NCBI GenBank assembly: GCA_049319825.1
Contig: JBMORT010000006.1
Span: 16,012 to 80,011 of the forward strand
Reading direction: 5' to 3'
Source of the DNA: Patescibacteria group bacterium
GTDB lineage: Bacteria > Patescibacteriota > Patescibacteriia > UBA11705 > DATKZF01
Length of the DNA stretch: 64,000 nucleotides
The notes under the pieces were generated by a model that searched no databases, was not told where the DNA came from, and saw only the letters and a list, made by a program, of their open reading frames with translations. Within the stretch, counting starts at the first letter, position 1; each line of letters opens with the position of its first letter. Below, piece by piece: positions 8,734 to 47,107 of the stretch. The position numbers and the translations under genes are program-made.

Positions 8734-8858
8734 CTGCTGCTCCTTTTTAGTCAGGGTTGCGTATCAGCATACTATTTTTAACATTGTTTGTCAATATTTG
8801 TTCCGTCCGACGCAGATTGGTTGATTTTACGAACGAATTATGCTAAATTTAGTTTAAT

Positions 8859-16101: not shown

Positions 16102-16132
16102 AATAAAAAATTAATTATTAGGAGAATCTAGC

Positions 16133-22100: not shown

Positions 22101-25100
22101 CAGCCGATCAATTGTTCCGAATTAACGGCAATATGGAGGTTCAGGGAAACCTGTCGCCATTGGCCGATGACGTTTATAATCTGGGCTCAGCCGATTCCAG
22201 ATGGGCGAATTTATATCTGGGCCCCGCGTCTTTATACATCGGTCAGAATGGTAATGATTATTCCATTTCTTATAACACCGGATCCAGCGCGTTGGTATTC
22301 AATGAGTCGGGAGCGGATCGGGACATCAGGATTGAAGGCGACACCGACACCAATCTGTTTTTCGTGAATGCCGGCAGCGACCGAATTGGCATTGGATTAA
22401 ATAATCCGGCGGAAAAATTGGAAGTCAGCGGCGCGATCAAGCTGGGAACAACTTCAAATACCAATGCCGGCACCATCCGCTGGACCGGCGCGGATTTTGA
22501 GGGCTATGACGGCGCGGGCTGGCAGAGCCTGACATCCGGCGGCGGATCCTTATGGACGGATGTTGGAGACTTCACTCACTTAACCTCGACAATCGACGAC
22601 GTCGTGATCGGATCAGACGCGACCGAAGACGCAGTATTTTGGTTTGATGTTACCGATGGGGCCGAAAAATTGACCATAGACGCTTCAAGCGATGCTCATT
22701 CATCCGCTGTCGCGTTCGACGTTAATTTTCGAGGGAGCGCGAACAATTTGAAAGCCGTGGATATTTACGCCGGTTCTTCAGCCGGGTTGACCGGCGCGTA
22801 TAATAATTTAATGGGACAAAACATCACCGTCGGTATAAATGCCGCGGATCAGGCCGGCACCATGCGCATCGGCAGCAACGTCAATATCGATGGCACCAAT
22901 GCCACCGCTGATGTTGTCGGCTATACTTTTTGGGATTTCGTTGACACCGGTCAAGGCGGCTTTACTGGCGTTGGATCGGCCACTGGGTTATATCCAATAA
23001 TGAATCATACCGGTAGCGGCAGTTTGTACGGAGTGAATAATTACTTAAGACATTCGGGATCGGGCAGTCTTTACGTTTCCGCCGCGCAAGCGCTGGGAGC
23101 CTCGGGATTCACCGGTTCCTTATACGGAAATTCATTGACCATGGTCAATCAAGCCGGGAGCAACGCGCAAAACATAATGGGGTTTGATCTTAATGTCACC
23201 AATTCGTCTTCGGCCACCGCAGACAGCGTTATCGGCGGCAAGATAACGGTCGACGCCTCCGGCGCGGAAGATATCGCGGCTTACGGATTGCAGGTAGTTT
23301 CCAAAAACGCGCTGGTAGACAGTTTTATCTATTTGGCGAGCCAAACCGGCGGCTCCGCCGGCTACGGCTTGGATATGAACGGCGCGACAATCGCCACCGC
23401 GGATATCAGATTGTCCGGCGGATCGACAATTGATAATTCGACGTCAACGATAATCGCTTTCAGCGACGGCATCAGAATCGGAAACACTGCGGACACCACG
23501 GCCGGAAACATCCGCTGGTCCGGCGCGGATTTTGAGGGCTATGACGGCGCGGGCTGGCAGAGCCTGACATCCGGCGGCGGATCCTTATGGACGGATGCCG
23601 GAGCGTTTACATATTTAACCGCCACCACCGATGACATGGTGGTCGGCTCGGCCGCCACTTCGGACGCGGAGCTGTGGTTTAATGTCAGCGGCAAGAGATT
23701 GACTATCGGATCGGGGTATGTTGATTTCGATTATGGAACCGGCACGGACAACGTGGGCATCGGCAGCAATACTTTAACGGCGATCACTACAGGAAGTTAC
23801 AATATCGGCATCGGCACCGGCGCCTTGCAGGCGGCGACGGATAATAATGGCCTGACCGCTGTCGGTTATCAGGCGTTATATACGAATTCATCGATCGGAA
23901 CAAATAATACCGCTGTTGGTTACAGAGCATTATATCTTAATAACGGCGGTGATTTTAACACCGCGCTTGGATACGAAGCGCTTGATGCCAATGTGAGCGG
24001 GTCAAATAGTGTGGCGATCGGGTACCGCGCGCTTACCAATAGCACCGGAAGCGGAAATGTGGCGGTCGGTTCCGAGGCGCTGTTATCCGCCGTCGGCTCA
24101 ACCAATATCGTCGCGATTGGATATGGCGCTGTTCAGGATCTCACATCGAACGGAGAAGTTGTCGGCGTAGGATATAATTCGCTGGCAAACGCGACTGGCG
24201 CCGGAAACACGGCAATTGGATACATCGCCGGACAAGGAAACGCCGCGTCGGCTACAGGGACGGCCAACACTGCTGTGGGCAGAGGCACATTATCGTCTTT
24301 TTCAACCGGAAATAATAATGTGGCTGTTGGGTATAACGCGTTGGATCAATTGAGTACCGGTACTTATAATATTGCCCTCGGCACCAATGCTTTGGGCGCG
24401 GCGGTGACCGGAAGCAATAACATTGCTATCGGCAACAGCTCATCACTCTTAAACACGTCCGGGATTGATAATATCGCTTTAGGATTTTTCGCGTTAAGCA
24501 CTAATACCGCAGGCCAGGGGAATGTCGGAATCGGACGCAATTCTTTAAGAAACGGCACTGGCAGTTATAATGTTGCGCTGGGCTATGAAGCTGGTTATCG
24601 GGAAACTGGCAGCAATACATTATATATAGATAATCAGGACAGAGGCAATGAAGCCTCTGGCGAGGCCGAATCCTTGATTTATGGCGTGTTTGATAATGTC
24701 GTGTCCAGTCAATTATTCAGGATAAATGCTCCAACGCAAGTTCAGGGAAACTTAATTCCATATCATGATAATGTTTATAATTTAGGCAGCCCAAGCAACC
24801 GCTGGAACAATATTTACACCGACAGAATGATTATGAGTTCCAATGCCGATCTCTATTTTGACGGCACCGATATTTTCTTCAGGAATTTTGAAACCAATGG
24901 AGACATCACCTTGGACGCGACCTCAACCGGCACCGGCAATGTCATTGTCGTCGCCGATAACTGGGCGGTCAACAGCAGCGGCAACATGTCCATTAACGGA
25001 GACATGACCGTGACCGGCGGAGATTTGAATCTTTCATCGGATATCCGGCTGCATGTCAGCGGCGATGATTTGCAGATTCAAAACGCTGCCACTGGCGGAG

Positions 25101-28100
25101 ATATATATTTGGATCCGACATACAACGGCTCCAGCGGATTCGTTTTTGTCAGCGGTGATTTGATGCCGGTTTACGATGATACTTTTGACATTGGATCCCC
25201 GGATCTGCGCTGGCAGGACGGATATTTTTCCGGGCAGGTTTATGTCGGCAATACATTAGAAATTTCAGATGATGGATTTTACGATACTGATAGCGCCATC
25301 GGTTTTTTCCCCGATGGACAGCTGACCAGAGGGTTGGCAATTACCGACGATGTGACTGTGGGTTTGGCTATTACCACCAATGCCAGCACAAATTTGACCA
25401 TTTTGCCAAACAACGCCGATTTGGACGTGCGTCCGACAGCTAATAGCACTGACTTTTTTCAAGTGCAAAATGCCGCCGGCACAGCGATATTTAACGTTGA
25501 CAGCTCCAATTCACGAGTCGGCATCAATACGGCCGCGCCGGATTACGCGCTGGATGTCGCCGGATCTGTCGGCATGGACGATTATATATATCATAACGGC
25601 GACAGCAATACGTATTTGGGATTTTCCGCGGACGATACGCTGGTGGTTTATTCTTATGGGGTGAAGTTGATGGAATATTACAGTTCCTCGGCTTTATCCA
25701 ATTCCGTCACCGGTAACCCCGATAACAATCGGGTGAACTTCGTTTGGGACGGGGACACCAACGACAGTCTATTCCGCATCGCCGCGCTTCAGGAGCAAAT
25801 CGGCATTGGCGCCACCGGCGGCGCGGCCAGCATGGACGGCAAGCTGGTCGTTTATCAGACAGCGACCGCTGATATATTTAATTTGTATGATGGGTCGGAT
25901 AATGTTTTCACGGTGACTGACGGCGGCAATGTCGGCATCAGGCAAACCTCGCCAGCCAGTGATTTTGAAATATTGTCAGACAACAGTACCACGGGCGCGA
26001 CAATGCAGCTCAGACGAAACGATGGCGCCGTGCTTGATGGAGATGATTTGGGATATTTGTATTTTTCAGGATTGGATAGCGGCGACACACTCAACGCCAC
26101 TGGCGCGTACATAAAAGCTGAGGCCACAGATACCTGGGGCGACGCATCCGATCCGGATGACGCGCCGACAGCTATGCATTTTTATACCCAAAACGACGGC
26201 ACTGGCAATAACATGACTTTCCCGATGATGACGATATATGAAGATATCGGCGTTGGCTTATTGCTTAACGGCAATTTGCCGCAGGCGACTTTTCACATGG
26301 AAACCAATAAAAACGGCTATGGCATCCGGATGGAAGAGTATCTCGGCGGCGGCGCCGGCGATTACTGGGAATGGGGAGTCAACGCCGCCGGTGATTTGAA
26401 TTGGAACGACAACGGCACGACCAGAATTTCATATAAAAACGGTGGCGATGTGGGCATCGGCACCAGCGGGCCCGGCGCTAAATTGGAGATTTATGATAAT
26501 GACGATGTCGGCGTGGCATTGGAAGTCAATAGCGACGAGTCGGATACGGCCGCGCAAAATGTTTTTCAAATCAGAACTGATTATAATGCCGCCGATGATT
26601 TGGTGTTTGTGGTCGATGCCGATGGCACGGTCCGAAACGATAATGGCACCTACACTACCGGCGCCGACTACGCGGAATATTTTTGGACAGCTGACATGAC
26701 TTTGGCCACGGCCGACGTGGTTTGCATCGATCCGACGCACAATAACGCGGTTTCCAAATGTTCCGGCGCCAATGACGCCAATATTTTGGGCGTTGTTTCC
26801 ACTAACCCGGCCTTCATCGGCAACGCGGGATCAAACTGGATATTTGACGGTGATCCGAATTATGTGATCATCGGTTTGGTCGGTCAAGTGCCGATTCGGG
26901 TCAGCAATGAAAACGGCCCGATCAGCGTTGGCGATTATTTAACGTCTTCGTCCACTCCGGGCGTGGCCATGAAAGCCGACCCCGGCAGCCCGACAGTCGG
27001 TATCGCCATCGAGCCGCTGACGGCGGGCGCCGGCATCATCAAAGTCGTGATTTCCAGAAATAACGGCAGCAATACTTTCTGGGCTGCCGGCAACAATGGC
27101 ATTTATCAAAACAATTTGCCAACGATTATCGGTCCGGATGCCGCTTTCAGCTATGTGCAGAGCGCGGCCGCCGGAGATCTGCAGATCGCCGATGATTTTG
27201 AAGCCAGAGGCGACGGCTATGTCGGCGCGAATATGATTGTCGGCGCTTCGACATCGGCCGCGGAGACATTGGCTAACGCCGGGTTTGCGATGAACGGCAA
27301 TGATTTGTTTGTGGCCGGCGATGCGGGCATTGAAGGCAATATTTATACTGACGGCTCGTTTATCGCCGGACCGGGTACCACCACTTACAGCGACGGCTCG
27401 ATTACTTCGACAAATACGATGACCATCACTTCAAATACCGGAGACCTGACGCTCGACTCTGGTTCCGGCACATTGAAGCTCGGCGCCGGCACGAATGCAA
27501 TATCAAATTCTGATGCGGGCGCAGATTTAACATTAAATTCGAACGGAGACATCAATTTCTTCAATTCAAATAATTCAATTGATTCCGGCGGCAATTTGAA
27601 TCTGGCCGGCGATATTAATATCGGCGGATCGCTAGTCGTTAATGATATGAGGCTGGGAGATATCGACATCGCTAACGGCGCAATAGCCAGCACGGGCGAT
27701 TTGACCATCGCTTCTGGCGCCAGCCAGGATCTGACGCTTGATTCCGATTCGGGAACGCTCAAGCTCGGCGCGGGCACCAATGAAATCTCCAATACTGACG
27801 CCAGCGCGGATCTGACCATCAAATCCGAAGGCAACATCAATTTCTTCGACGCCAATACATTCATTGATAAAGACGGGAACCTGACTCTGGCCGGCCAGCT
27901 GCAGGCGGCCATGGATGTTATCGCTCAGCAGAACGTGATTATAAAAAATCAGCTTGAGGTGGATCAAATCGCCGCTGATGATCGGCAAGAAATCACCGTC
28001 ATGGACGAGATGGTTTTTGAGCAGGGATTAAAGGTCTCGGCCAAAACGGACACGACAGTCGCCGGCACGCAAGTCAACGTCGCCGGATTCGGCAATGCCA

Positions 28101-31100
28101 ACAACCAGACATCGCGCGCGGCCGCGGTTTACAACGGCAAGCTTTATGTCGGCACATACAACACTTCAAACGGAGCCGGGCTTTGGGCATACGACGGTTC
28201 GAACTGGGCATCGGTTGATACTAACGGCTTTGGCAATGCCAACAATACTTCAATTAATTCAATGATCGCCTATGGCGGCGGTTTAATCGTGGGCACGAGA
28301 AATACGAACAAGGCCGAGGTTTGGATATGTGACGATACGGATACTTGCTCGCAGCAAAATTTAGGAGCGACTTTTGACGGTAATAACGACGCGGCGCAGG
28401 CAATGACCGTTTATAACGGCAAATTATTCATGGGCACGGACAATGCCATTGATAACAGTGAAATTTGGCAGTTTATCGACACCAATAATTGGTTAATGGC
28501 CGATAACACCAACGGGTTTTTAAGCACGTATCAAAATGACGCCTTGACGGCGCTGCTGAGCATTGGCTCACAGCTTAATAATGAAGGATTATTGGCCGGT
28601 ACCAAAAATAACAGCGGCGCGCAGATTTGGCGAAGAGGATCAAATTTCACCTGGACCAGAATCGATAATAGTTCATTCGGCGATATCAATAACGTGGAGG
28701 TGATGGCCATGACCGCATATAACGGTCAGGTGTTCGCCGCCACCAAAAATTCCAGCGGTTGTCGAGTTTATAAACAGCGAGAAGAAAGCACCAGCTGGGA
28801 CGCGGCCGGCAGCGCGGGATTGATAAATTCGGCCTATACCGAATGTCGTTCCATTGTCGTCTATAATGGCGATTTGTACGCATTATTAGGCAAGACTTCG
28901 GGCGCGGGCATGGCCGTGGCCAAATATAACGCTATGGCCAACAGCTGGTCCGCGGTTTATACCAATGCCAGCGACCTGGCCGGTTATTGGTTGCAAACAT
29001 TCGGCGAAAAGTTGTATTTTGCCGCTGAAAGCTCCGGTCAAGTGAAAGTATTTGAATATAATGAAAATAAGAATCTGTCCCAGTCGATTGAATTCATGGC
29101 CAATGGCGAAACGGCCGCCTTATACTTTAAATCCGACGCGGCCGGCGACGCCAATATCGGCCAGCAATCGGCGGGTGCGTTTATCATGACCCATACGTTG
29201 ATCACCAATTCCGGCGCTTATGACTTGGCCGAAGATTGGCCGACGGAAGACCCGGGGATCGAAGCCGGCGACGTGGTGGCCGTTGACCCGTTCAATAAAG
29301 CCCACGTGATCAAGGGTTCGAAAGATAACAGCGCGGTGGGCATAATTTCCACTGAACCGGGCTATATTTTGTCACAAAAAGCCGATGGTCGAATTTACCG
29401 TCCGGTGGCTTTGGCCGGCCGGGTACCGGTAAAAATAAGCAATGAAAACGGGCCGGTTAAGGCGGGAGATTTATTGACACCGGCGTCAATACCGGGTTAT
29501 GCGATGAAATTGATCGGATCCGGGCCGGTGATCGGCAAAGCTTTGGAAGATTACGATTTCAGCGCCGCCGGCGATTCGTACGAGGTATCCCAAGAATTGC
29601 AATCCGCGGCTCAGCAATTTGACGAAATCGCGGAAAATACGATGAAGCTGGTTGAAAATACGGAAGAAGTGGTCAGCTCTTTAAATCAGACCAAGCAAGA
29701 ATTATTGAGCATTGAAAATAATCAGGAATTAACAGCTCAAGAAAAAGACCAGTTGATCAATGAACTATCCGGGGAAATAGAAAATGTGGCGGTCGCTTTG
29801 GAAATAGATGATCAGGCCATTACCGACATCAGCGACAGCGCCGATATCGTTGATGTACAAAATCAAATAATTGAAAAGGCCCAGGAATTGGAGAATCAGG
29901 CGATGCAGGCGGAAATCGCCAAGAGCCAACTGATTCAGCCCATGGCCAAAGATCCGGGCAAGGGCAGAATTATGGCATTGGTGATGAACAGTTATTATTT
30001 TGAATCAACCGACGGCCAGACAGCCGGTCAATTGGCCGCTGGTTCGGCGGCCATCGATCCGCAATCTGTCGCGAGCGTTGACTTCGCTGAAATATTAACT
30101 GTTGCCGGCGATGGAGCGATTGAATTGGCCTCGAGCGTCAGAATATACGGCGATTTATATGTTAATGGCAATTTGGTGGTGACCGGCGATATCGATCTGG
30201 CGGGTAATTTAAAAATCGGAGATAAAATATATATATCCAATCAAATGTCCGGCACGGCGCTGATCGCCTCCGCGGACGCGACTGCGGTCGAAGTGAAGTT
30301 TGATACTCCATACGAAGAAATACCGAGAATCACCGTCACGCCGGAACTGCTGGGATTAACGGCCGATGAAAATATATTTGATGTTTGGGATGGTCGGTAC
30401 ATCATTACCGATAAATCGACTGAGGGATTTACCATTAATATCGCCAACGCGCTTTGCGTGTCCGCCGGCGCGTCAGCTGATGTTGTCGGTTGTCAGCATC
30501 ATTTAAGGTTTGATTGGGTGGCGTTTGGAGTTGTTTCCGATGAAGAATCGCTGGCGCAGATGGTCGAGATGACCGCCAAACCGGCCAGTACCGATAAAGA
30601 GCCGCCATCGATTGACCCTGCGGTCAAAGTAATCATTCGAAACGGCGCCAATTTAGACACCACCGATATCGGCAACAGCTTGATTGGCCTGGGATACGCT
30701 GTTTACAAAGGCGCCGACACGATCAGTTATTACTCCACCTCCAGAATATTGGTGCTGAATTCGCAGCTGTCGCCGTCCGTGCTCAACGAAATTAGGTTCT
30801 TAATCGGCGGTGAGATAGAGTACGCCTCAGCAGCCGGTGAATATGGCGATAGCGACGTGGTAATTTTCTTGGGAGAGGATTTAACCAAAGATGTGTTCAC
30901 CTACGATCAGCAGAAATTATTGGATTCAAATATAACCGACGAAATCCCACCGCTGCCCGCACCGATCGCCGAAACGGCGTCGAGCGACGACACGTTGTCC
31001 GAACAAGCGAATAACGATCAACCCATTCTCAGTGCGGCTGACGGGGCGGTTGAAGATGAAGAAACGCCGATCAATGTCGACGGTCAAATTTCGGATTCGA

Positions 31101-31159
31101 CAGTATCAGCCGAGTCGCAGCCCGAACCGGAAATAGTTGCTGTCCCCGTCGGTGAATAA
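16133..31159 (+). CDS. giant surface protein (5008 aa): N-terminal signal anchor, tail-fibre-like N-domain, three blocks of YadA-head-like beta-roll repeats, beta-propeller-like repeats, coiled coil
   Basis: Uninterrupted 15-kb ORF with a TTG start and AGGAGA 7 nt upstream. Repeats of the type NTAIGyxALxSNTTGxxN. A module ...SLIYGEF...RINGxxQVQGNL.P..D.YNLGS...RW.NLY occurs three times. YNGKLYVGT / NGFGNANN units are propeller-like. Confidence 0.9.
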   Translation: MKSRRISKHLMNSRNSNFHKTKKTRNRKLVVFLILAMIFNLSYFNISSKPAEAAASQFINYQGKLLDTSGIEVDNGQYHVRFKMYNAGTGGSLLWSESWDNTTTTATVDAGLFTLKLGEVNPFPATLDFQTESEYWLSVEIGGSGATPTWDGEMTPRKEITAVAYAMNADKLDGKSEEEFADLSEDETITGQYTHDVDVFDGAALTTIINASDDNSVDTFSSLQADAVQNSNDGDNLYGIYVTNLQGTASTGNEYAIYQAGTGWDYGLYVEDQAYLGQNLRFSSNFDVKNTIIASVNIMDVQSIGTNSMAFRVIPGTAPAYSALGETQASFFEFHRNSSGTDRMLLTAPTNATNGYQFVSYAALPATPGPFSFGFTTSLAAPPTKVMNIFNTGSVGINTFGPDAKLDVLATSGEQLRLTYTDGSVYTGFTVNSDGDLIVDATGSDIRLATGDNLWVASSADIVIGNTYLGESTAQIDSGAYNVGVYNGNLTYSTNTNVQQVLEDLDTAIGSAGSKWTDAGSYTYLTATTDNLVVGSNATADAELFMDVADKRLHIGSGYIDFDFTGSGNTAVGDDSLYSITNGTHNSSIGYQAMYYLTSGYDNTALGYQALRIDSSGTGGQSFGNTAIGSLALSSINTSAAVYNTAIGVSSLQNNTTGLANTAIGALALDSNVIGASNVALGYSTLQANVSGDYNVALGAEALDSLTSADANIAIGYKAMDSTTTGQYNVALGHQSLRANISADYSTALGYQALYSNTASNITAVGAQAMYSNGTGTENVAMGYQSLYSNDSGDQHTAIGYQSLYSLSANVDDNTAVGYRAMYSNLAGGQSTAIGSQALYNALAPGYSTAVGYQALYATTTGDYNIAVGNQSMVANTTGSDNVSIGVNALDSNTTGNYNIAIGRQSLQANISADYSTALGYQALYSNTASNITAVGAQAMYSNGTGTENVAMGYQSLYSNDSGDQHTAIGYQSLYSLSANVDDNTAVGYRAMYSNLAGGQSTAIGSQALYNALAPGYSTAVGYQALYATTTGDYNIAVGNQSMVANTTGSDNVSIGVNALDSNTTGNYNIAIGRQSLQANISADYSTALGYQALYSNTASNITAVGAQALYSNTSGTGNAALGYQSLYSNTSGNNNSAFGYQSLFSHASGNDGNTAMGYRSMYSMTAGALNTSIGTEALYSALSTSGNVAIGYRAGYFETGNNRLFIDNNSRSDEATGRVRSLIYGEFASATADQLLRINGLTQIQGHLIPYQDNFYNIGSADYRWNNLYVDDAYVLKGATNINLESSGTPTTSGAYAIGANDEFTYSDSTNVQDVLDDLDAALASAGSKWTDAGDFTHLTSTIDDVVIGASTTEDAVFWFDVTDNAEKFSIDASSDAHTTAALDIDFRGDANNLKVVDIYAGSASGLSANSFLFGQSITLGYNAGDAAGTYRIANNVDVNGTNATSDIIGYAFFDNTQTGQDGLSGVGSATGAYSLISHSGSGSLTGFQNYLWHTGSGSVTGFGGSTSSSGSGTVYAANPQVYGLSGFSGSLYGYRTSMTNSSGSTQNMLGFDINVTNNAGASADSLWGGKITVKASGTEDTAAYGLQVVSDTDLIDSLINLAVVNGGSAGYGFDMNGATIATADIRLSNGSTIDNLTSTVVAFSDGIRIGNTADTTAGNIRWSGADFEGYNGAGWQSLTSGGGSLWTDAGTYTYLTATQDDLLVGSSNNASRPLYFDVSNMSLEIGSGDTLNARLYMYSQDGDSGLIEYAASDRFEFYDQIWVQGYIDFDNASADTAVGYVALNSNTTGTDNSAFGYQALVSNTTGSYNTGIGASSLISNNTGLANTALGASSLFSNQGGSNNTAIGVSALYSNVSGASNVAIGSGALGASVGEDYNVAIGAAALANSSGGTANSVIGFQSLTNNIIGDYNSALGYRSLYNATGDYNVAIGSDSLFSNINGDSNIAIGSYAGYHETGSNTLYIDSIYRSNEADGQVKSLIYGEFASATADQLFRINGNMEVQGNLSPLADDVYNLGSADSRWANLYLGPASLYIGQNGNDYSISYNTGSSALVFNESGADRDIRIEGDTDTNLFFVNAGSDRIGIGLNNPAEKLEVSGAIKLGTTSNTNAGTIRWTGADFEGYDGAGWQSLTSGGGSLWTDVGDFTHLTSTIDDVVIGSDATEDAVFWFDVTDGAEKLTIDASSDAHSSAVAFDVNFRGSANNLKAVDIYAGSSAGLTGAYNNLMGQNITVGINAADQAGTMRIGSNVNIDGTNATADVVGYTFWDFVDTGQGGFTGVGSATGLYPIMNHTGSGSLYGVNNYLRHSGSGSLYVSAAQALGASGFTGSLYGNSLTMVNQAGSNAQNIMGFDLNVTNSSSATADSVIGGKITVDASGAEDIAAYGLQVVSKNALVDSFIYLASQTGGSAGYGLDMNGATIATADIRLSGGSTIDNSTSTIIAFSDGIRIGNTADTTAGNIRWSGADFEGYDGAGWQSLTSGGGSLWTDAGAFTYLTATTDDMVVGSAATSDAELWFNVSGKRLTIGSGYVDFDYGTGTDNVGIGSNTLTAITTGSYNIGIGTGALQAATDNNGLTAVGYQALYTNSSIGTNNTAVGYRALYLNNGGDFNTALGYEALDANVSGSNSVAIGYRALTNSTGSGNVAVGSEALLSAVGSTNIVAIGYGAVQDLTSNGEVVGVGYNSLANATGAGNTAIGYIAGQGNAASATGTANTAVGRGTLSSFSTGNNNVAVGYNALDQLSTGTYNIALGTNALGAAVTGSNNIAIGNSSSLLNTSGIDNIALGFFALSTNTAGQGNVGIGRNSLRNGTGSYNVALGYEAGYRETGSNTLYIDNQDRGNEASGEAESLIYGVFDNVVSSQLFRINAPTQVQGNLIPYHDNVYNLGSPSNRWNNIYTDRMIMSSNADLYFDGTDIFFRNFETNGDITLDATSTGTGNVIVVADNWAVNSSGNMSINGDMTVTGGDLNLSSDIRLHVSGDDLQIQNAATGGDIYLDPTYNGSSGFVFVSGDLMPVYDDTFDIGSPDLRWQDGYFSGQVYVGNTLEISDDGFYDTDSAIGFFPDGQLTRGLAITDDVTVGLAITTNASTNLTILPNNADLDVRPTANSTDFFQVQNAAGTAIFNVDSSNSRVGINTAAPDYALDVAGSVGMDDYIYHNGDSNTYLGFSADDTLVVYSYGVKLMEYYSSSALSNSVTGNPDNNRVNFVWDGDTNDSLFRIAALQEQIGIGATGGAASMDGKLVVYQTATADIFNLYDGSDNVFTVTDGGNVGIRQTSPASDFEILSDNSTTGATMQLRRNDGAVLDGDDLGYLYFSGLDSGDTLNATGAYIKAEATDTWGDASDPDDAPTAMHFYTQNDGTGNNMTFPMMTIYEDIGVGLLLNGNLPQATFHMETNKNGYGIRMEEYLGGGAGDYWEWGVNAAGDLNWNDNGTTRISYKNGGDVGIGTSGPGAKLEIYDNDDVGVALEVNSDESDTAAQNVFQIRTDYNAADDLVFVVDADGTVRNDNGTYTTGADYAEYFWTADMTLATADVVCIDPTHNNAVSKCSGANDANILGVVSTNPAFIGNAGSNWIFDGDPNYVIIGLVGQVPIRVSNENGPISVGDYLTSSSTPGVAMKADPGSPTVGIAIEPLTAGAGIIKVVISRNNGSNTFWAAGNNGIYQNNLPTIIGPDAAFSYVQSAAAGDLQIADDFEARGDGYVGANMIVGASTSAAETLANAGFAMNGNDLFVAGDAGIEGNIYTDGSFIAGPGTTTYSDGSITSTNTMTITSNTGDLTLDSGSGTLKLGAGTNAISNSDAGADLTLNSNGDINFFNSNNSIDSGGNLNLAGDINIGGSLVVNDMRLGDIDIANGAIASTGDLTIASGASQDLTLDSDSGTLKLGAGTNEISNTDASADLTIKSEGNINFFDANTFIDKDGNLTLAGQLQAAMDVIAQQNVIIKNQLEVDQIAADDRQEITVMDEMVFEQGLKVSAKTDTTVAGTQVNVAGFGNANNQTSRAAAVYNGKLYVGTYNTSNGAGLWAYDGSNWASVDTNGFGNANNTSINSMIAYGGGLIVGTRNTNKAEVWICDDTDTCSQQNLGATFDGNNDAAQAMTVYNGKLFMGTDNAIDNSEIWQFIDTNNWLMADNTNGFLSTYQNDALTALLSIGSQLNNEGLLAGTKNNSGAQIWRRGSNFTWTRIDNSSFGDINNVEVMAMTAYNGQVFAATKNSSGCRVYKQREESTSWDAAGSAGLINSAYTECRSIVVYNGDLYALLGKTSGAGMAVAKYNAMANSWSAVYTNASDLAGYWLQTFGEKLYFAAESSGQVKVFEYNENKNLSQSIEFMANGETAALYFKSDAAGDANIGQQSAGAFIMTHTLITNSGAYDLAEDWPTEDPGIEAGDVVAVDPFNKAHVIKGSKDNSAVGIISTEPGYILSQKADGRIYRPVALAGRVPVKISNENGPVKAGDLLTPASIPGYAMKLIGSGPVIGKALEDYDFSAAGDSYEVSQELQSAAQQFDEIAENTMKLVENTEEVVSSLNQTKQELLSIENNQELTAQEKDQLINELSGEIENVAVALEIDDQAITDISDSADIVDVQNQIIEKAQELENQAMQAEIAKSQLIQPMAKDPGKGRIMALVMNSYYFESTDGQTAGQLAAGSAAIDPQSVASVDFAEILTVAGDGAIELASSVRIYGDLYVNGNLVVTGDIDLAGNLKIGDKIYISNQMSGTALIASADATAVEVKFDTPYEEIPRITVTPELLGLTADENIFDVWDGRYIITDKSTEGFTINIANALCVSAGASADVVGCQHHLRFDWVAFGVVSDEESLAQMVEMTAKPASTDKEPPSIDPAVKVIIRNGANLDTTDIGNSLIGLGYAVYKGADTISYYSTSRILVLNSQLSPSVLNEIRFLIGGEIEYASAAGEYGDSDVVIFLGEDLTKDVFTYDQQKLLDSNITDEIPPLPAPIAETASSDDTLSEQANNDQPILSAADGAVEDEETPINVDGQISDSTVSAESQPEPEIVAVPVGE
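18353..19450. repeat. 510-bp tandem duplication inside the giant gene (2 full copies plus a partial, about 99.8% identical)
   Basis: Copies start at 18353, 18863 and 19373 with a single mismatch (agcgcc/agtgcc). They encode identical 170-aa beta-roll segments. Confidence 0.9.
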
Positions 31160-34140: not shown

Positions 34141-34215
34141 CCGGTGTGCCATTTCCCAATGGACGTAGGAACACAAAATTTTGTGTTCCTACGCTCAGGA
34201 AATCCCCTGTCATTT
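34141..34215. repeat. 75-nt extended inverted repeat (outer gggatttcc/ggaaatccc arms, inner perfect 14-bp gtaggaacacaaaa/ttttgtgttcctac)
   Basis: Hairpin with no T tract, between the MBL gene and ndk. Confidence 0.5.
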
Positions 34216-40304: not shown

Positions 40305-43142
40305 TTATGAGCCAGGATGCAAAATTTTATTCAAATATTTTCCCGTATAACTCTTGGCGTGCCGCGCAATTTTTTCCGGCGTGCCCTTGGCGATTACCAG
40401 GCCGCCGCGCTCGCCGCCTTCCGGACCGAGATCGATGATGTAATCCGCGGTTTTAATAACATCGAGATTGTGTTCGATGACGACCACGGTATTGCCCTTC
40501 TCCACCAGTCGATTTAAAACTGCCAGTAATTTATTGATATCGTCAAAATGCAGGCCGGTGGTCGGCTCGTCTAAGATATAAAGAGTGTCTCCCGTGGCTC
40601 GCTTGGACAATTCTTTGGTTAATTTAATCCTCTGCGCTTCGCCGCCGGATAAAGTGGTCGCGCTCTGACCCAAAGTAATATAGCCCAAGCCGACATCCTG
40701 CAAAGTCTGCAGCTTGTTTTTTATGCGGGGGATGTGTTTGAAAAATTCCAAGGCCTGATTGACGGTCATGGCCAGCACGTCGGCGATGTTTTTGCCTTTA
40801 TAAAATATTTCCAGCGTTTCGGAATTGAACCTGGTGCCGCGGCATTTTTCGCATTCGACGAAGACGTCGGGCAGAAAATGCATTTCGATTTTAATCAGGC
40901 CGCCGCCTTCGCAGTTTTCGCACCGGCCGCCGGGTACGTTAAAGCTGAATCGGCCCGGTCGGTAGCCGCGCGCTTTGGCTTCGGGCGTGGCCGCGAAAAG
41001 ATCGCGAATGGCATTGTAAACTTCAATATAGGTTGCCGGGTTTGAGCGCGGGGTGCGGCCGATCGGCGACTGATCGATATTGACGACTTTATTGATGTTT
41101 TCCAGGCCGGTTATTTTTTTGTGCCTGCCCGCCTTTGCCGCTGCCCGGTAGAATTTTTGCGCCAGGGCGCGATACAGGGTCTGATCAATGAGTGAGCTTT
41201 TGCCGCTGCCCGACACGCCGGTGACGCAAACAAGAATTCCGGTCGGAATATCAACATCGATATTTTTTAAGTTATTTTCACTGGCCCCTTCAATGGTCAA
41301 AAAACCCGTCGGCACCCGTCTTTCGGTCGGTACTGGTATTTTCTTTTTCCCATTAAGATAATCGGCGGTCAAGCTGTCCGGGCATTTTAACAATTCTTTA
41401 AATGTGCCGCTGCAGACCACTTTGCCGCCGAGCACGCCGGCGCCCGGTCCGAGATCGACCACCCAATCGGCGTGGCGCATGGTTTCTTCATCGTGTTCGA
41501 CCACGATTAATGTATTGCCCACGTCGCGCAGGTCGCGCAGAGTTTTTATCAGTTTTTGATTGTCACGCTGGTGCAGTCCGATCGAAGGTTCGTCCAAAAT
41601 GTACATAACGCCGCGCAGCTCTGAGCCGATTTGGGTGGCCAGCCTGATTCGCTGGCCTTCGCCGCCGGATAGCGTGGCGGCGCTGCGGTCCAATGTCAAA
41701 TAATCAAGCCCGACATTGACTAAAAATTGCAGCCGATTTTTTATCTCCTTTAATATCGGCTGGGCGATGCTTTCTTTTGATTTTGATAATTTCAATTTTT
41801 GAACCAAGGTAATTGAATCGGAAATCGATTGAGCGGAAAATTCAATGATATTTTTGCCCTCGATCGTGACCGCCAAGCTTTCCGGCCGCAATCTTTTGCC
41901 GCCGCAGACCGGGCAATCGCCGGCTCGCATGTATTTCATTATTTCCTCGCGCCGGCTTTCAGATTCGGTTTCCTGCAGGTTGCGTTCGAGTTGATTAATG
42001 ACGCCTTCGAATCGTCCGGTGTATTCATACATCGCGTCAGACGATTTTGATTGATAGGAAAAATCAATGTCTTCGTCTGTTCCGTTGAGCAAAATATCGA
42101 TAAACCATTTCGGCAGTTGTTTAACCGGTTTTTTAGTGCTCAAACCAAAGTGCTTAACCACGCTTTTTAAGCTTTGGGCGCGCCAGCCTTCATAAGTCGA
42201 TCGCCATGGCGCGATGGCGCCTTCATCGATAGACAAATCTTTATTGGGAATAATCAAATCCGGGTCAAAGCTTTGCGATGCGCCCAGGCCATGGCATTCG
42301 GGACAAGCGCCGAAAGGCGAGTTAAACGAAAACATCCGCGGCTGAAGCTCCTCGAAGCTGATGCCGCAGTCTGTGCAGGCGTTTTTTTGCGAAAATATTT
42401 TTTCAGTTTTGTCCGGCATGATAACTAAAATAGAGCCGTCGCTTTCCTCAGAGGCTTTTTCCGCCGCATCGTATATTCTGGTTTTCGCCTCGGGCTTGAT
42501 GACTATTCGATCGATTATCAGTTCAACGCTGTGATTTTGATATTTTTTCAGCTTGATCTTGTTTTTATCGGCCAGCTCATATTCTCGGCCGTCCACCCGG
42601 ACGCGGGCATAGCCTTTTTTAAAAAGTTTATCGAAAAGCTTTTCAAAGGTTCCTTTTTGGCCGCGAATGATCGGCGACAAAATTTGGATTTTGCTGTTTG
42701 GCTTAAGCGCGAGCAGCTGATTGGTGATATCTTCGATCGACTGGGAGGAAATGAGATTACCGCATTTGGGGCAGTGAGGCACGCCGATTCGGGCGTAAAG
42801 CAAGCGAAGATAATCATATATTTCAGTGATCGTGCCCACTGTGGACCGCGGATTTTTGGAAACGGTTTTTTGTTCGATGGAAATGGCCGGTGACAGGCCT
42901 TTGATCGAGTCGACGTCCGGCTTGGACATCACGCCTAAAAACTGCCGGGCATAAGCTGACAGGCTTTCGACATAGCGTCTTTGGCCTTCGGCATAGATGG
43001 TGTCAAAGGCGAGAGATGATTTGCCCGAGCCGGATAGGCCGGTGATGACAATGAATTTATCCAATGGCAAATCAAGGTCAATGTTTTTGAGGTTATGTTC
43101 GCGCGCGCCGCGGATGATTAATTTGTCTGGATTGTTATTCAT
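40305..43142 (-). CDS. uvrA: excinuclease ABC subunit A
   Basis: Starts [54 protein letters not shown]; 945 aa with two ABC modules. Confidence 0.95.
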
Positions 43143-43162: not shown

Positions 43163-43963
43163 ATGAAAAATTTTAAGCCTTTTCCAAAAAGATATTATAC
43201 CGAATACGGAATTTATTTCAATACGGCCAATGTTGACGGCAGGTTTCCTTTTTTTAAGGAAGAAATTTTTTGCGAATTAATGATTGAGGAGTTGAAATTG
43301 GTTAAAGAAATATATCAATGCAAAATATTCGGTTTTCTGATCAATTATGACCATAATCATTTTTTGATCCAGCATGCGGATGTGGGGGAGAGGAATATAT
43401 CTAAAGTAATGAAGAGTTTGAAGAGGAATTTTTCGCAGAATTCAAATAAAATTATGGGATTTACGCCTTTGTTACCCATCGGAGAAACGACTCATACCTT
43501 TCAGGTAAAAATGAATACCCCACCGATAACGTCAGACGTCCCACTGGTAACGCCGAATTCGAATTCGGCGTTACCAGTGGGGGAACCGGCGGATTCGAAT
43601 TCGGCGTTACCAGTGGGGGAACCGGCGGATGGCCAGGAGGAGCGATCGGCGGGGAATCAAGAGAGAAGCTGCTCTCCATTACCGGATTGATTGCGAAAAA
43701 GAAAAAAAGAGCTGGATACTTTTATTCTTAATAAACGCCAGGAATTCATCAATAAATACGGCAAAGACCAAATCATCTTTCCCAAATTCAAATGGCAACA
43801 CCGCTTTCACGACCACCGCGTCCGCGATGAAAACGATTTGGCGGATAAAATGGAATACATTGATATTAATCCTAGCAAGCATGGAATTGTTAAACCAGGC
43901 GAAAGGTACAAATATTGCTCAACGCATTATAAATATGATTTTATTGACGAATTGCCTTTTTAG
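43163..43963 (+). pseudogene. IS200/RAYT-like HUH tyrosine transposase reading frame, interrupted by an in-frame TGA (43688-43690) and a roughly 300-bp in-frame insertion
   Basis: N-part INYDHNHFLIQH...SKVMKSLKRNFS (HuH motif). C-part FKWQHRFHDHRVRDENDLADKMEYIDINPSKHGIVKPGERYKYCS (catalytic Tyr region). Both parts are in the same frame. Standard TGA stops are used elsewhere in the window. Confidence 0.55.
43541..43630. repeat. perfect 40-bp palindrome (ccactggtaacgccgaattc|gaattcggcgttaccagtgg) plus a 36-bp tandem duplication, inside the transposase frame
   Basis: The palindrome spans 43541-43580. The unit gaattcggcgttaccagtgggggaaccggcggat(tc) is duplicated at 43561-43630 and encodes NSALPVGEPAD twice. 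Confidence 0.85.
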
Positions 43964-44031
43964 AAATATGTCAGTTTATTAAATTATATCACATTTTTAA
44001 AGTAAAAACCGCTCAACGTGGTTGGCGGATA

Positions 44032-45027
44032 TTAATAATTAGTTTGAAGCGTAAAAGAAAATCCTAATTTGTTTTCTTCACAGTCGGCAATGAAATTTTC
44101 AAGTCTTTCATGTTTGAGGTTAATATAAACAGCCCTATACCTGTGACAGCAGCTTGGGCTGGCTATCGGACCATTAAAACCCTTGGATGTACTGCTTTCA
44201 GGGTAAAATCCAAATGCAAATTGTGGACAAAATACTCCGTCCCACAGAATCCTGGGCAATCTGAAAAACCAGATTGAAACATTTTTTTGCTGATCGCGCG
44301 GAATTTGCCTTAGTATTTCATCAGGTTCTGCTTGAAGCAGCGTGCCGAAATTAAAGTCTAGGCCCACACTTCGCTGGTAATAATCTTCTGCGCTGACAAA
44401 ACCATATTTTGAAAAGTTCTCCCAATTCAACGAAATAGTTCTATCAAGAACCGTATTTTCGAAGACCACACTTTTCCTAATAATTTTTTCTGTCAGCCGG
44501 GTTTTTTTGTACAGTTCAACCAGCTTCCTGATACGCATTTCCAAATCCATCTCCAAAAATTCATAATCACCGGGGAAAAATTCCTTCAAATCCTCAGCGC
44601 TGATTGCTGAGCGTAAGAATTTGATCATTGCCAAAGCGCGCGGGAAGTCATGGATCATCAGAGTGAAAGGCAAGCTTTGATCCAGCGGGACTGTCTCGCC
44701 ATTGAAAAAGAAAGTAGGCTCAGTCAGAGCCCTTTGCAATTCGGTATATGCCGACCAATATCCTTTCTTTCGAAGTTTTGCAAGCAAATTTCCCATTACC
44801 AGCAGATCAGTCGATCGCTGCTGCCACTGGGAATTGAAATTTGTCGGAGAATTGGCATCAGTAACCATTTTGAAAAAAGATGCTGGATCCAGCAGCTCCT
44901 TTAATTTTCCTCTCAGACGATGAAAGGCTCGGTTACCGGTCAGTTTTTGTCTGAGGAAAGCGGCTTGCTCTCCCTGGCTTTGCACACTGGCTTCGGGCAC
45001 TTGGTCGGTCATGTTAGACCTCCTCAT
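44032..45027 (-). CDS. hypothetical protein (331 aa)
   Basis: Clean ORF with no recognised motif. It lies with the transposase remnant between uvrA and uvrB. Confidence 0.55.
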   Translation of the reverse strand: MRRSNMTDQVPEASVQSQGEQAAFLRQKLTGNRAFHRLRGKLKELLDPASFFKMVTDANSPTNFNSQWQQRSTDLLVMGNLLAKLRKKGYWSAYTELQRALTEPTFFFNGETVPLDQSLPFTLMIHDFPRALAMIKFLRSAISAEDLKEFFPGDYEFLEMDLEMRIRKLVELYKKTRLTEKIIRKSVVFENTVLDRTISLNWENFSKYGFVSAEDYYQRSVGLDFNFGTLLQAEPDEILRQIPRDQQKNVSIWFFRLPRILWDGVFCPQFAFGFYPESSTSKGFNGPIASPSCCHRYRAVYINLKHERLENFIADCEENKLGFSFTLQTNY

Positions 45028-45163: not shown

Positions 45164-47107
45164 TTACATGATTTTTTTACTTAATTTATCAATTTTATCT
45201 CGATACTCTATTGCTTTCTCAAAATCCAGATTCTCAGCGGCCAGACGCATCTTCTGCTCGAGCTCGACCAATTTATTTTTCATATCTTCTTCTTCCATTA
45301 AATCAACTTCGGCTTCCTCTTGTTCAGTAACGATTTCTTCATTTAATGATTTGAAAACGGTTTGGGGTTTGATTTTATGCTTTTGATTATATTCGAACTG
45401 GATCTGCCGCCGTCTTTCAGTCTCGTCGATCGCTTCTTTTATGCTGTCGGTTCGCCGGTCGGCAAACATGATCACTTTGGAATTGACATTTCTTGACGCC
45501 CGGCCGATCGTTTGAATTAAGCTTCTGGCATTTCTTAAAAATCCTTCTGAATCCGCATCCATTATGGCCACCAGGCTGACTTCGGGAATATCGAGGCCTT
45601 CGCGCAGCAGATTAATGCCCACTAAAACATCATATTTTCTTTTTCTTAAATCCAAAATAATTTTCGATCGCTTAAAAGTATCGATTTCGCTGTGCAGATA
45701 AACGGTTTTATACCCGCGCTCTTTCAGATACTTGGCCAGATTTTCAGACATTCTCTTGGTTAGCGTGGTGATTAAAACTCTTTCTCCTCTCCGAATGACC
45801 TTATCGATTTCTTTTTTCAAAACATCGATTTGATTTTCAGTCGGATGGATTTCAATATTAGGATCGAGCAGGCCGGTGGGCCTGATGATTTGCTCGACGA
45901 CTTTTTTGCCGTTTAAAAATTCATAATCGCCTGGAGTGGCAGACACGAATACCGCGTGCTTTAAATATTTTTCAAATTCATCGAAGCTCAGCGGCCGGTT
46001 ATCATAGGCGCTTTGCATCCGGAAGCCATGCTCGATCAGATTTTTTTTCCTTGACCGGTCGCCCGCGCGCATGGCGCGAACTTGTGGCAGTGAAAGATGG
46101 CTTTCGTCAATGAAAAAGAGCCAGTCGTCTTTATGCGCGTAATTGAAAAAGTCGAGCAGGCAAAAAGGCGGCTCGCCTGATTGGCGGTTATCAAAATATA
46201 AAGAATAATTTTCAATGCCATTGCAGTAGCCGAGCTCGCGGATCATTTCCAAATCATACTCGGTTCTTTGCTTGAGGCGATGGGCTTCGATCGGCCCGAG
46301 GCTTGGCAATGTCTGCCGCAGTTCTTTTTCAATGCCTTTGAGCGCTTCTTTCATGTAGTCTTCATAAATCAAGTATGGCGTGGCCGGGAAAATGGAAATT
46401 TTTTCAAACTCTTTGAGCTTCTTTCCGGAAATCGGATTATATAATGACAATTTTTCGATCTCATCGCCCGAAAATTCAATGCGGTACACATTTTCCGACA
46501 GGCCTTGCATCACATCCATGACGTCCCCCTTGATTCGGAATCGGCCGTTCTTGAGCTCGGTGTCATTTCTTTCAAATTGAATTTTTACCAGCAGCTTGGC
46601 CGCTTCTGGCGGAGAAATTTTTTGTTTCAATTTTAATTCCAAAGCGCTCTGCGCGAAAAGCTCCGGCCGGCCGAAGCCATAGATGCAAGAAACCGAAGCG
46701 ACCACGATCACATCTTTTCTGGTGAGGACCGATGCGGCCGCCTGCAGGCGCAGCTGGTCGATTCGTTCATTGACCTTGGAATCTTTTTCAATATAGGTAT
46801 CGGTTTGAGGGATATAGCTTTCCGGCTGATAGTAGTCATAGTAGGAGACGAAGTAATTGACTGAATTTTCAGGAAAGAATGATTGAAATTCATTGTAAAG
46901 CTGTGCGGCCAGAGTCTTATTCGGCGCCAATACCAAAGTCGGCTTTTGCAGATTTTGGATCACCTGAGCCATGGTAAAAGTTTTGCCGGAGCCGGTGACC
47001 CCGAGCAAAGTCTGGTTGGGATATTTTTTATAGCCCTTGACCAGCTTTTCAATGGCCTGCGGCTGGTCGCCTTTGGGCTGAAATTTTGATTTTATTTGAA
47101 AATCCAT
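45164..47107 (-). CDS. uvrB: excinuclease ABC subunit B
   Basis: Starts QPKGDQPQAIEKLVKGYKKYPNQTLLGVTGSGKTF, with the C-terminal UVR motif; 647 aa. Confidence 0.95.
   Translation of the reverse strand: MDFQIKSKFQPKGDQPQAIEKLVKGYKKYPNQTLLGVTGSGKTFTMAQVIQNLQKPTLVLAPNKTLAAQLYNEFQSFFPENSVNYFVSYYDYYQPESYIPQTDTYIEKDSKVNERIDQLRLQAAASVLTRKDVIVVASVSCIYGFGRPELFAQSALELKLKQKISPPEAAKLLVKIQFERNDTELKNGRFRIKGDVMDVMQGLSENVYRIEFSGDEIEKLSLYNPISGKKLKEFEKISIFPATPYLIYEDYMKEALKGIEKELRQTLPSLGPIEAHRLKQRTEYDLEMIRELGYCNGIENYSLYFDNRQSGEPPFCLLDFFNYAHKDDWLFFIDESHLSLPQVRAMRAGDRSRKKNLIEHGFRMQSAYDNRPLSFDEFEKYLKHAVFVSATPGDYEFLNGKKVVEQIIRPTGLLDPNIEIHPTENQIDVLKKEIDKVIRRGERVLITTLTKRMSENLAKYLKERGYKTVYLHSEIDTFKRSKIILDLRKRKYDVLVGINLLREGLDIPEVSLVAIMDADSEGFLRNARSLIQTIGRASRNVNSKVIMFADRRTDSIKEAIDETERRRQIQFEYNQKHKIKPQTVFKSLNEEIVTEQEEAEVDLMEEEDMKNKLVELEQKMRLAAENLDFEKAIEYRDKIDKLSKKIM

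Follow-up and report, generated by a model that had tools for sequence, protein, structure and literature searches.

A split RAYT gene between uvrA and uvrB of a Patescibacteria group bacterium carries an in-frame REP-like palindrome common to its subfamily

The nearest described relatives of the gene considered here are the REP-associated tyrosine transposases (RAYTs, also called TnpAREP), which act on hairpins of the repetitive extragenic palindrome (REP) type. The biochemical basis for this role of the hairpin comes from the TnpAREP proteins of Escherichia coli, Stenotrophomonas and Marinomonas (PMC8266576, PMC3733652), and in the E. coli enzyme a helix that includes K82 contacts the REP stem (PMC8266576). 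In TnpAREP subclass 2.4, the equivalent of RAYT Group 4, REPs can be inserted within the tnpAREP gene itself (Quentin et al. 2018, BMC Genomics 19:475, PMC6006769); the REPs of this subclass are long and double-footed with feet GT[AG]G...C[TC]AC, short DNA repeats explain its length heterogeneity, its proteins carry the motifs NH[IFV]H and YIxNNP, and its hosts are Cyanobacteria and Bacteroidetes (PMC6006769). In-frame REPs in uvrA, uvrB and recB have been described as well, together with Rickettsia palindromic elements (RPEs) (Di Nocera et al. 2013, PMC3733652). Here we analysed a RAYT gene at positions 43163-43963 of a 64,000-nt stretch of DNA from a Patescibacteria group bacterium (hereafter the window: contig JBMORT010000006.1, 16,012-80,011, forward strand), which is split by an in-frame TGA and contains a perfect palindrome; unless a locus is named, coordinates are positions in this window. 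We consider it likely, with a probability of about 0.7, that this is a vertically inherited RAYT gene with its subfamily's own in-frame "double-foot" palindrome in a disordered surface loop. A REP inside a tnpAREP gene is an already published phenomenon and the locus reveals no new kind of system. An earlier interpretation of the window made without database searches (the sequence-only reading) had regarded a mobile insertion that preserves the reading frame as unusual, a view that does not hold given the in-frame REPs already known (PMC3733652; PMC6006769).

Translation of 43163-43966 gives, in frame 1 from 43163, 175 codons up to a TGA at 43688-43690, followed by 90 codons and a TAG at 43961-43963. 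The sequence-only reading had placed the HUH and Tyr regions in a single frame, joined by the linker peptide PLVTPNSNSALPVGEPADSNSALPVGEPAD, with a TGA at 43688, and the translation contains all of these. It had further described a palindrome of 40 bp, which is indeed perfect and proved to be 42 bp long, and a 36-bp tandem duplication, which was recovered with 100% match at 43557-43630 by Tandem Repeats Finder (TRF). The parts of the gene are as follows.

43163..43687, + strand: N-terminal HUH half and linker, 175 codons (open reading frame (ORF) list and translation; exact match to protein P0001)
43352..43360, + strand: HuH motif H64-N65-H66 (sequence; alignments A1 and A4)
43463..43774, + strand: variable linker, 312 nt (anchor mapping; 168 nt in the ortholog)
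43540..43581, no strand assigned: perfect 42-bp zero-loop palindrome with feet GTAA...TTAC (repeat analysis; covariation; phase)
43557..43630, + strand: exact tandem duplication, period 36 (12 codons), 2.1 copies, 100% match (TRF; repeat family D1)
43688..43690, + strand: in-frame TGA splitting the gene (sequence; within a 69-nt stretch missing from the ortholog)
43691..43963, + strand: C-terminal Tyr half, 90 codons from a TTG right after the TGA, ending in TAG (ORF list and translation)

In the NCBI annotation, 43163..43687 is the hypothetical protein ACOZBH_02425, which is encoded on a Patescibacteria contig of 365 kb and ends at the TGA; our analysis joins this protein and the following 90-codon ORF into a single RAYT gene, of which they are the halves. 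In the family alignments A1 and A4, H64 never varies and H66 hardly does, and the residue between them is Asn in the window, Cys in the ortholog (H-C-H) and Phe in the family consensus (H-F-H). The Tyr half contains WQHRFHDH, with W35-Q36 at 43793-43798, and the catalytic Tyr of EYIDINP at 43856-43858. The HuH, W-Q and Tyr motifs of the window all lie in invariant columns of A4, the middle Asn of HuH alone being atypical. When both halves were read through with the TGA as X, the NCBIfam model NF047646 (REP_Tyr_transpos) matched with 88.4 bits (E = 3.9e-25; cut-off 80), in two stretches because of the linker, and Pfam Y1_Tnp scored 20.9, just under its cut-off of 23. The sole sequence match of the family profile in the PDB was E. 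coli TnpAREP (4ER8, E = 6e-10), whose residues 5-86 align with the first half and residues 91-135 with the second. The insertion point is therefore between E. coli residues 86 and 91, where the linker replaces about 4 residues, and the linker of the window gene is bounded by two elements: the counterpart, in the alignment, of the E. coli REP-binding helix, and the beta-strand with W-Q, which comes before the helix of the catalytic Tyr. An AlphaFold2 model of the ortholog (P0002; predicted local distance difference test, pLDDT, 86) had 4ER8_A as its top PDB hit in Foldseek (E = 1.1e-6; target-normalised TM-score 0.68), followed by IS200/IS605 TnpA structures at E values of about 1e-4. In this model residues ∼100-129, the variable part of the linker, have pLDDT values of 45-56 and are predicted to be disordered, and residues 130-151 are modelled as a subfamily-specific helix right after the disordered stretch. 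The NF047646 match, the PDB profile match and the Foldseek result for the ortholog model bear out the HUH transposase identity proposed earlier, and place the gene with the RAYT-type HUH/Y1 genes.

The palindrome, CCCACTGGTAACGCCGAATTC followed directly by GAATTCGGCGTTACCAGTGGG, is 100% complementary with a loop of 0. The ortholog P0002 is intact (218 aa) and is present in uvrC-uvrA-gene-uvrB synteny in 4 independent assemblies. It is 78% identical to the window protein over residues 1-100 and 71% identical over the Tyr half, and the synonymous divergence (dS) between the two genes is about 1.1. The ortholog has a palindrome at the same site and, with the two aligned on their centres, 20 of 20 pairs are Watson-Crick pairs in both genomes; 6 of the 20 pairs differ between them and all 6 are compensated on both sides (arm GGTAACGCCGAATTC in the window's metagenome-assembled genome (MAG), GGTAACGACGAATCC for GCA_964411255.1). 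An assembly artefact as the origin of the palindrome was ruled out, since the ortholog palindrome is identical in the 4 independent assemblies. The distance between the anchors on either side of the linker is 312 nt in the window versus 168 nt in the ortholog, so that ∼144 nt are lineage-specific, 39 nt having been gained before the palindrome and 105 nt after it (including the duplication and the TGA). The lineage-specific part thus amounts to the 36-bp duplication plus about 108 further nt, and the remaining linker is a property of the family.

Our metagenome scan with the family alignment returned 60 loci (L numbers below denote loci and P numbers proteins). The palindrome alignment comprises 32 distinct subfamily loci; L074-L076 were checked later, giving a total of 35. 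A palindrome was present in all 35 distinct full-length loci that bear the linker, perfect or near-perfect, ∼24-42 bp long and nearly always loop-free, shortly downstream of the conserved motif NKI(M/L)G(F/Y), with the consensus CCGAAGGCGACATTGG followed by CCAATGTCGCCTTCGG. Classical RAYT-like matches without the linker have no palindrome. The subfamily comprises about 192 clusters at 50% identity (E ≤ 1e-30), its members are annotated as "transposase" or "RayT", and its hosts are Patescibacteria (Peregrinibacteria, Falkowbacteria) and Cloacimonadota. Across the 32 aligned loci, with the best palindrome of each linker taken, 87.5% of cells were paired, compared with 65% in shuffles and 33-44% when the partners were slid, and changes on both sides were seen at 17 of the 20 pairs. 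The inner 14 pairs gave 433 Watson-Crick pairs, 4 G-T pairs and 11 other mismatches among 448 cells. The two central pairs, which cannot pair in a hairpin, are complementary in 32/32 loci with 13 double changes each.

The peptides encoded at the palindrome position differ by locus (EGDIGQCRLR, EGAIRESRLR, EGEDDHPRLQ, SESDNNYCRFQ and PLVTPNSNSALPVG, for example), and the centre of the window palindrome, GAATTCGAATTC, recurs in the distant locus L077 (GAAGGCGCGAATTC followed by GAATTCGCGCCTTC), where it encodes EGANSNSRLH. We ruled out a protein-level repeat motif because the dyad is retained in the DNA although the peptide is free to vary. Since pairing is retained as the peptide changes, the conserved entity is the DNA dyad, not the peptide and not merely an RNA stem, and what appears as the "low-complexity" middle of the RAYT protein is a translated DNA palindrome and no protein domain. 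The codon phase of the palindrome is identical in 32/32 loci, the apparent exceptions L034 and L055 being genes with a frameshift whose palindrome is in phase with one of the two halves. Of the 32 sequences, 16-23 would be open in the alternative codon phases; use of a single phase although others are open points to one acquisition, in the ancestor of the Patescibacteria/Cloacimonadota subfamily.

These comparisons bear on the proposal of the sequence-only reading that a REP had inserted into this particular transposase copy, that is, that a mobile REP or a hairpin resembling a MITE (a miniature transposable element with inverted repeats) recently entered the gene and kept the frame by chance. 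A recent insertion would accommodate three observations: a REP-like palindrome of the kind on which RAYTs act, a linker that exceeds the ortholog's by 144 nt, and a 36-bp duplication whose exactness marks it as young. However, at a dS of about 1.1 the syntenic ortholog already carries the palindrome in the same place, its differences being compensated, all 32 aligned loci share the codon phase, and the 64 kb hold no donor copy. We therefore set the proposal aside and regard a recent insertion as highly improbable.

That the palindrome is REP-like, as first suggested from the hairpin itself, is upheld by the layout in relatives. In L017, L029, L018, L036, L037, L038, L023, L005, L007 and L074 the gene is flanked by palindromes of this type. 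These relatives show the classical REPtron layout plus an extra REP inside the ORF, with further copies elsewhere on the contig. The palindromes of two such loci are located at the following positions of those loci.

L017: 4197, 4564 (internal) and 4905
L029: 1950, 2289 (internal), 2644 and 3352

Arms of internal palindromes agree with those of flanking palindromes of their own locus at 12.8 of 14 positions, compared with 9.0 of 14 for other loci (permutation p < 5e-5). The feet of the arms, at columns 7-10 and 31-34 of alignment A3, have the form G[ATG]A[GA]...[CT]T[TAC]C and resemble the "double foot" type. Most loci have GAAG...CTTC there, L016 and L038 have GTAG...CTAC, and GTAA...TTAC is shared by the window and L001. 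We found no related copy in flanks of ∼12 kb in about 8 lineages, namely the window, L001, L021, L026, L028, L040, L042 and L077. The sequence-only reading had looked to further copies of the palindrome elsewhere in the genome; a search of the 64-kb window yielded none beyond the 43540-43630 site. The 21-nt arm occurs 3 times in the window, always at the palindrome site, and 0 times in 100 shuffles of the window, and an ungapped search of the linker for degenerate arm copies with up to 7 mismatches found none besides the 3 exact arms. Searched against a collection of genome contigs that does not include the source genome, the 19-nt arm gave 5 single chance matches in unrelated taxa. As no other palindrome copy was found in the 64-kb window or in the 12.6 kb around the ortholog, the term "cognate REP" is applied in this lineage by analogy with the relatives.

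The third exact arm is owed to the duplication, which covers the palindrome from its centre through the right arm and the 15 nt that follow, and so provides a second right arm as an extra pairing partner for the left arm. The single-stranded DNA fold of 43520-43640 has an energy of -46.2 kcal/mol (z = -9.1 versus shuffled sequence), and in it the second right arm is the partner of the left arm. Arm-level tandem arrays are also present in the relatives L015, L016, L018, P0024, P0030 and P0042.

A stem within the ORF could instead act in the mRNA, limiting expression of the nuclease as an RNase III site or a translational brake, in the manner of the hairpin control of IS200 tnpA. The linker RNA folds at -100.5 kcal/mol (z = -5.5). 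The length of the stem should suffice for RNase III. A lowering of RAYT expression by REP hairpins has moreover been discussed (Di Nocera et al. 2013, PMC3733652). Nevertheless, G-U pairs (4) are outnumbered by other mismatches (11) among the 448 inner cells, every one of the 32 loci keeps complementarity at the two central pairs, for which an RNA hairpin has no use, and identical palindromes occur in non-transcribed or intergenic flanks. The scarcity of G-U, the complementary centre and the non-transcribed copies together indicate a dyad that is maintained at the DNA level, and we regard a purely mRNA-level role as improbable.

The main rival to our interpretation is that the palindrome is a selfish passenger without a role for the enzyme, kept perfect by template switching or by gene conversion with extragenic copies. 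In favour of such a passenger, the loop is disordered, with 18 to 97 residues across members, the peptide is unconstrained, and correction of quasi-palindromes by template switching is an established mutational mechanism. Quentin et al. (2018) likewise suggest little impact on the protein (PMC6006769). Against a passenger, ∼8 lineages keep the palindrome although their ∼12-kb flanks offer no donor for conversion. Its loss was observed in 0 of the 35 inspected full-length linker-bearing loci despite evidently frequent in-frame deletions in the loop, and the arms evolve more slowly than synonymous sites (12 of 40 nt changed, compared with a proportion of synonymous differences, pS, of about 0.6). 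Universal retention and slow, always-compensated change weaken this alternative, which we hold to be unlikely, if less so than an mRNA-level role.

For the splitting of the gene, we asked whether the TGA is a stop at all. Of the 35 long ORFs in the window, 6 end in TGA and none has an internal TGA, not even an ORF of 5014 aa; the genetic code is therefore standard, and recoding of TGA (code 4 or 25, or selenocysteine) was ruled out. The window gene thus departs from the uninterrupted ORF by which a RAYT is recognised. Programmed frameshifting or read-through at the TGA was also rejected, since the halves share a frame, and an A-rich run after the stop and a weak downstream A-U stem were unconvincing. 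Comparison with the ortholog gave pairwise ratios of nonsynonymous to synonymous divergence (dN/dS) of 0.11 upstream and 0.15 downstream of the TGA, so that in this comparison purifying selection still acts on the downstream half, and all catalytic residues are intact. Among 266 sampled family proteins, 29 end or shift frame in or after the linker, which marks the linker as the weak point of the gene, and the mixture of frameshifts and stops among these relatives fits decay better than programmed read-through. L033 and L034 show the same frameshift in two samples. Frameshifts in or just past the palindrome region recur across the family; in P0207, P0243, P0257, P0261 and others the tail is the +1 translation of the Tyr half (e.g. 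...NSNGKNH.TTI...).

A very recent inactivation is the most likely reading of the split, to which we give about an even chance, and it is possible that a split gene is tolerated. As assembled, the gene would yield a 175-aa HUH-only protein and, at best, a 90-aa Tyr half by re-initiation at the adjacent TTG, which is conceivable. As a tentative alternative, the organism itself may have an intact gene, the TGA (and possibly also the 36-bp duplication) being either an error of assembly or consensus calling or a variant from a minority strain in the MAG. Decay is not seen in the Tyr half, which retains its catalytic residues, the stop lies 58 nt past a repeat and palindrome region that is error-prone for short-read assembly, and the window sequence is found in one assembly only. 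On the other hand, substitution errors are rare in consensus assemblies, about one in ten sampled members is truly disrupted in or after the linker, with one frameshift found in two independent samples, and the NCBI annotation likewise ends the protein at the TGA.

These observations show that the palindrome has been kept since the ancestor as a perfect DNA dyad by compensatory changes while the encoded peptide drifts freely. By analogy with the characterised enzymes, we propose that it would be the cognate hairpin of the transposase, bound and nicked when extruded from single-stranded DNA. Tolerance by the loop and the constant co-inheritance of enzyme and substrate would explain why the intragenic copy survives, and this copy may serve as a cis site for autoregulation. 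The palindrome would also make the loop mutable, giving rise to arm-level tandem duplications, frameshifts and stops; in the window the loop has grown by 144 nt, including the exact 36-bp duplication, and has also acquired the TGA. More tentatively, and at a strength that makes us doubtful, the intragenic palindrome may be an obligatory, anciently fixed cis element of a distinct Patescibacteria/Cloacimonadota RAYT lineage, a protected master copy of the substrate and/or an autoregulatory site that is kept even without extragenic REPs.

Several points weigh against our interpretation as a whole. Neither a flanking copy nor any other copy of the palindrome, such as define a REPtron, was found in the 64 kb, where at 5 mismatches of 19 only chance-level matches appeared, and a REP-like repeat family is absent from the 64-kb window and from 12.6 kb around the ortholog. 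An E. coli REP that was turned into a perfect palindrome was impaired in processing, and the REPs cut by characterised TnpAREP are bulged or looped, unlike the perfect zero-loop dyad (PMC8266576). An Asn at the middle position of HuH, as in the window, is unusual. The perfection of the dyad could stem from template-switch repair and not from selection for function. The choice of the best palindrome per linker inflates the percentage of paired cells, and leaves the position, the phase and the comparison of window and ortholog unaffected. Finally, a pairwise dN/dS is blind to a short period of relaxed constraint.

The genomic neighbourhood is consistent with vertical inheritance. The sequence-only reading had placed the element between uvrA and uvrB together with a 331-aa gene, an arrangement that the ORF list confirms, and the features around the RAYT gene are these.

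40305..43142, - strand: uvrA, a conserved neighbour divergent from the RAYT gene, start codons separated by 20 nt
43194..43221, - strand: sigma-70-like promoter match TTGAAA-16 nt-TATAAT, 11/12, directed towards uvrA (from a consensus scan only, which is not evidence of function)
44032..45027, - strand: 331-aa ORF (ACOZBH_02435), between the RAYT gene and uvrB
45164..47107, - strand: uvrB, conserved neighbour; 87% identical in L001

UvrA is 86% identical to that of the window, in the same arrangement, in L001, L002, L003 and L014, and in the ortholog locus the RAYT gene overlaps uvrB and ends inside its 3' end. There is 1 copy of the RAYT gene within the 64 kb, and its uvrA/uvrB position is shared with the relative at a dS of about 1.1. 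The description of the gene as domesticated agrees with this, in that it appears to behave as a domesticated, vertically inherited gene whose uvrC-uvrA-gene-uvrB synteny is kept in a relative. Because their start codons are 20 nt apart, the divergent uvrA and RAYT genes must share or overlap control regions; the promoter match at 43194-43221 falls within the initial 60 nt of the RAYT ORF. The 331-aa ORF has no Pfam or NCBIfam match, gives no tblastn match in L001 and is missing from the ortholog locus; a search of 5.8 billion proteins returned one non-self homolog, 73% identical and located on a 1.3-kb contig.

Elsewhere in the window, an Rfam scan of its whole length returned 3 tRNAs only and no RNA family in the linker. 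We noted a perfect 30-bp zero-loop palindrome at 34164-34193 (CGTAGGAACACAAAA followed by TTTTGTGTTCCTACG; feet GTAG...CTAC), which is intergenic and follows an unannotated gene ending at 34130; an imperfect inverted repeat of greater length (GGGATTTCC...GGAAATCCC) encloses this palindrome. It has the appearance of a double-foot REP, its stem sequence is unlike that of the intragenic palindrome, and it is present in 1 copy in the 64 kb. At 457-551, overlapping the end of a 151-aa ORF, there is a 41-nt inverted repeat (78% complementary, 13-nt spacer) with repeated units resembling TTACGAAT and TTACAAAT. The 5014-codon ORF mentioned above is a single giant protein gene on the + strand at 16115-31159.

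We also observed a RAYT sub-clade situated inside type I cas operons, directly upstream of cas1, the gene following cas3 in 5 loci and cas4 in L005. The RAYT genes concerned, in coordinates of the respective loci, are listed here.

L004, 5001-5675: RAYT gene in cas operon
L005, 5001-5777: RAYT gene in cas operon
L007, 3739-4374: RAYT gene in cas operon (same as L008)
L074, 7001-7669: RAYT gene in cas operon
L075, 7001-7621: RAYT gene in cas operon
L076, 7001-7582: RAYT gene in cas operon

Four of the operons are I-B-like (Cas6b, Cas8b/TM1802, Cas7, Cas5, Cas3) and that of L005 is of the DevR/DevT type. REP-like palindromes cluster around the cas-operon RAYT gene and between cas1 and cas2; a relationship of the CRISPR repeat to the palindrome was ruled out, the type I-B repeat CTTTGAATTAATTGTCCAACAGAACAAGGATTGAAAC being unrelated. 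One CRISPR repeat is common to L007, L075 and L076, so that few independent events may underlie the cas association. Between cas1 and cas2, L004 (6782-7150), L005 (6741-7166) and L074 (8848-9213) have a gene of family PF05635 ("23S rRNA intervening sequence protein"), and in L074 tandem arrays of a 14-nt purine-rich unit, AGTGAGAGGTGAGG, at 8763-8846 and 9529-9668 stand on either side of the PF05635 and cas2 genes. Our literature search found no paper describing a RAYT sub-clade in cas operons. Should the reading of the palindrome as an obligatory element be true, one REPtron sub-clade would have settled stably between cas3 and cas1 in type I-B cas operons.

Our results extend the published oddity of a REP within tnpAREP to bacteria of candidate phyla, and they sharpen its evolutionary picture: the site is fixed, the codon phase is single, changes are fully compensated, and the element persists where flanking copies are absent. 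We argue from these four properties that the element has been maintained rather than repeatedly inserted. They also raise the question of why an enzyme should carry its own substrate, as the palindrome would be by analogy, inside its gene.

Among known systems, E. coli TnpAREP (4ER8) is the closest in both sequence and structure, with a common core of HuH, W-Q and Y-x-x-x-N-P, and it is a single-copy domesticated gene accompanied by palindromic repeats, as the present gene may be. It has ∼4 residues at the site where the subfamily has 40-110, and its REPs, which lie outside genes, form bulged, imperfect hairpins carrying a 5' GTAG, unlike the element of the subfamily. The IS200/IS605 TnpA proteins (IS608, ISDra2) resemble the gene in their HUH/Y1 fold and in the recognition of hairpins in single-stranded DNA; unlike these insertion sequences, the window gene has no tnpB, no second copy in the window and no subterminal pair of left-end and right-end hairpins, its Y1_Tnp score is below the gathering threshold, and the gene is syntenic across genomes. 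Intragenic REPs and RPEs are likewise short, in frame and located in apparently functional genes, with tandem or grouped units, and they add 20-80 residues in tolerant regions. However, they are multi-copy elements at lineage-specific sites in many unrelated genes, whereas the present element occupies one fixed site in the gene of its presumed mobiliser, is conserved across phyla and has no other copy in the 64 kb.

The closest precedent for the arrangement itself is subclass 2.4, for which a tblastn search of plasmids with P0004 returned no reference sequences, so that the insertion site and the frequency of the element are compared by description. Both groups have a REP within the RAYT ORF, flanking REPs and repeat-driven variation in length, and the present element resembles the long double-foot type. 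They differ in their motifs (NH[IFV]H and YIxNNP in subclass 2.4; DHFH and YTMYN in the present subfamily, with DHNH and YIDINP in the window), in their feet (GT[AG]G...C[TC]AC as against mostly GAAG...CTTC, or GTAA...TTAC in the window) and in their hosts (Cyanobacteria and Bacteroidetes as against Patescibacteria and Cloacimonadota). From the published description, the insert of subclass 2.4 is in the beta3/alphaC loop (nomenclature as we read it), whereas the present insert follows the alphaC-equivalent helix. The REPs of subclass 2.4 are described as occasional insertions, whereas the present element was found in every member examined, in one phase, and appears ancestral to its subfamily.

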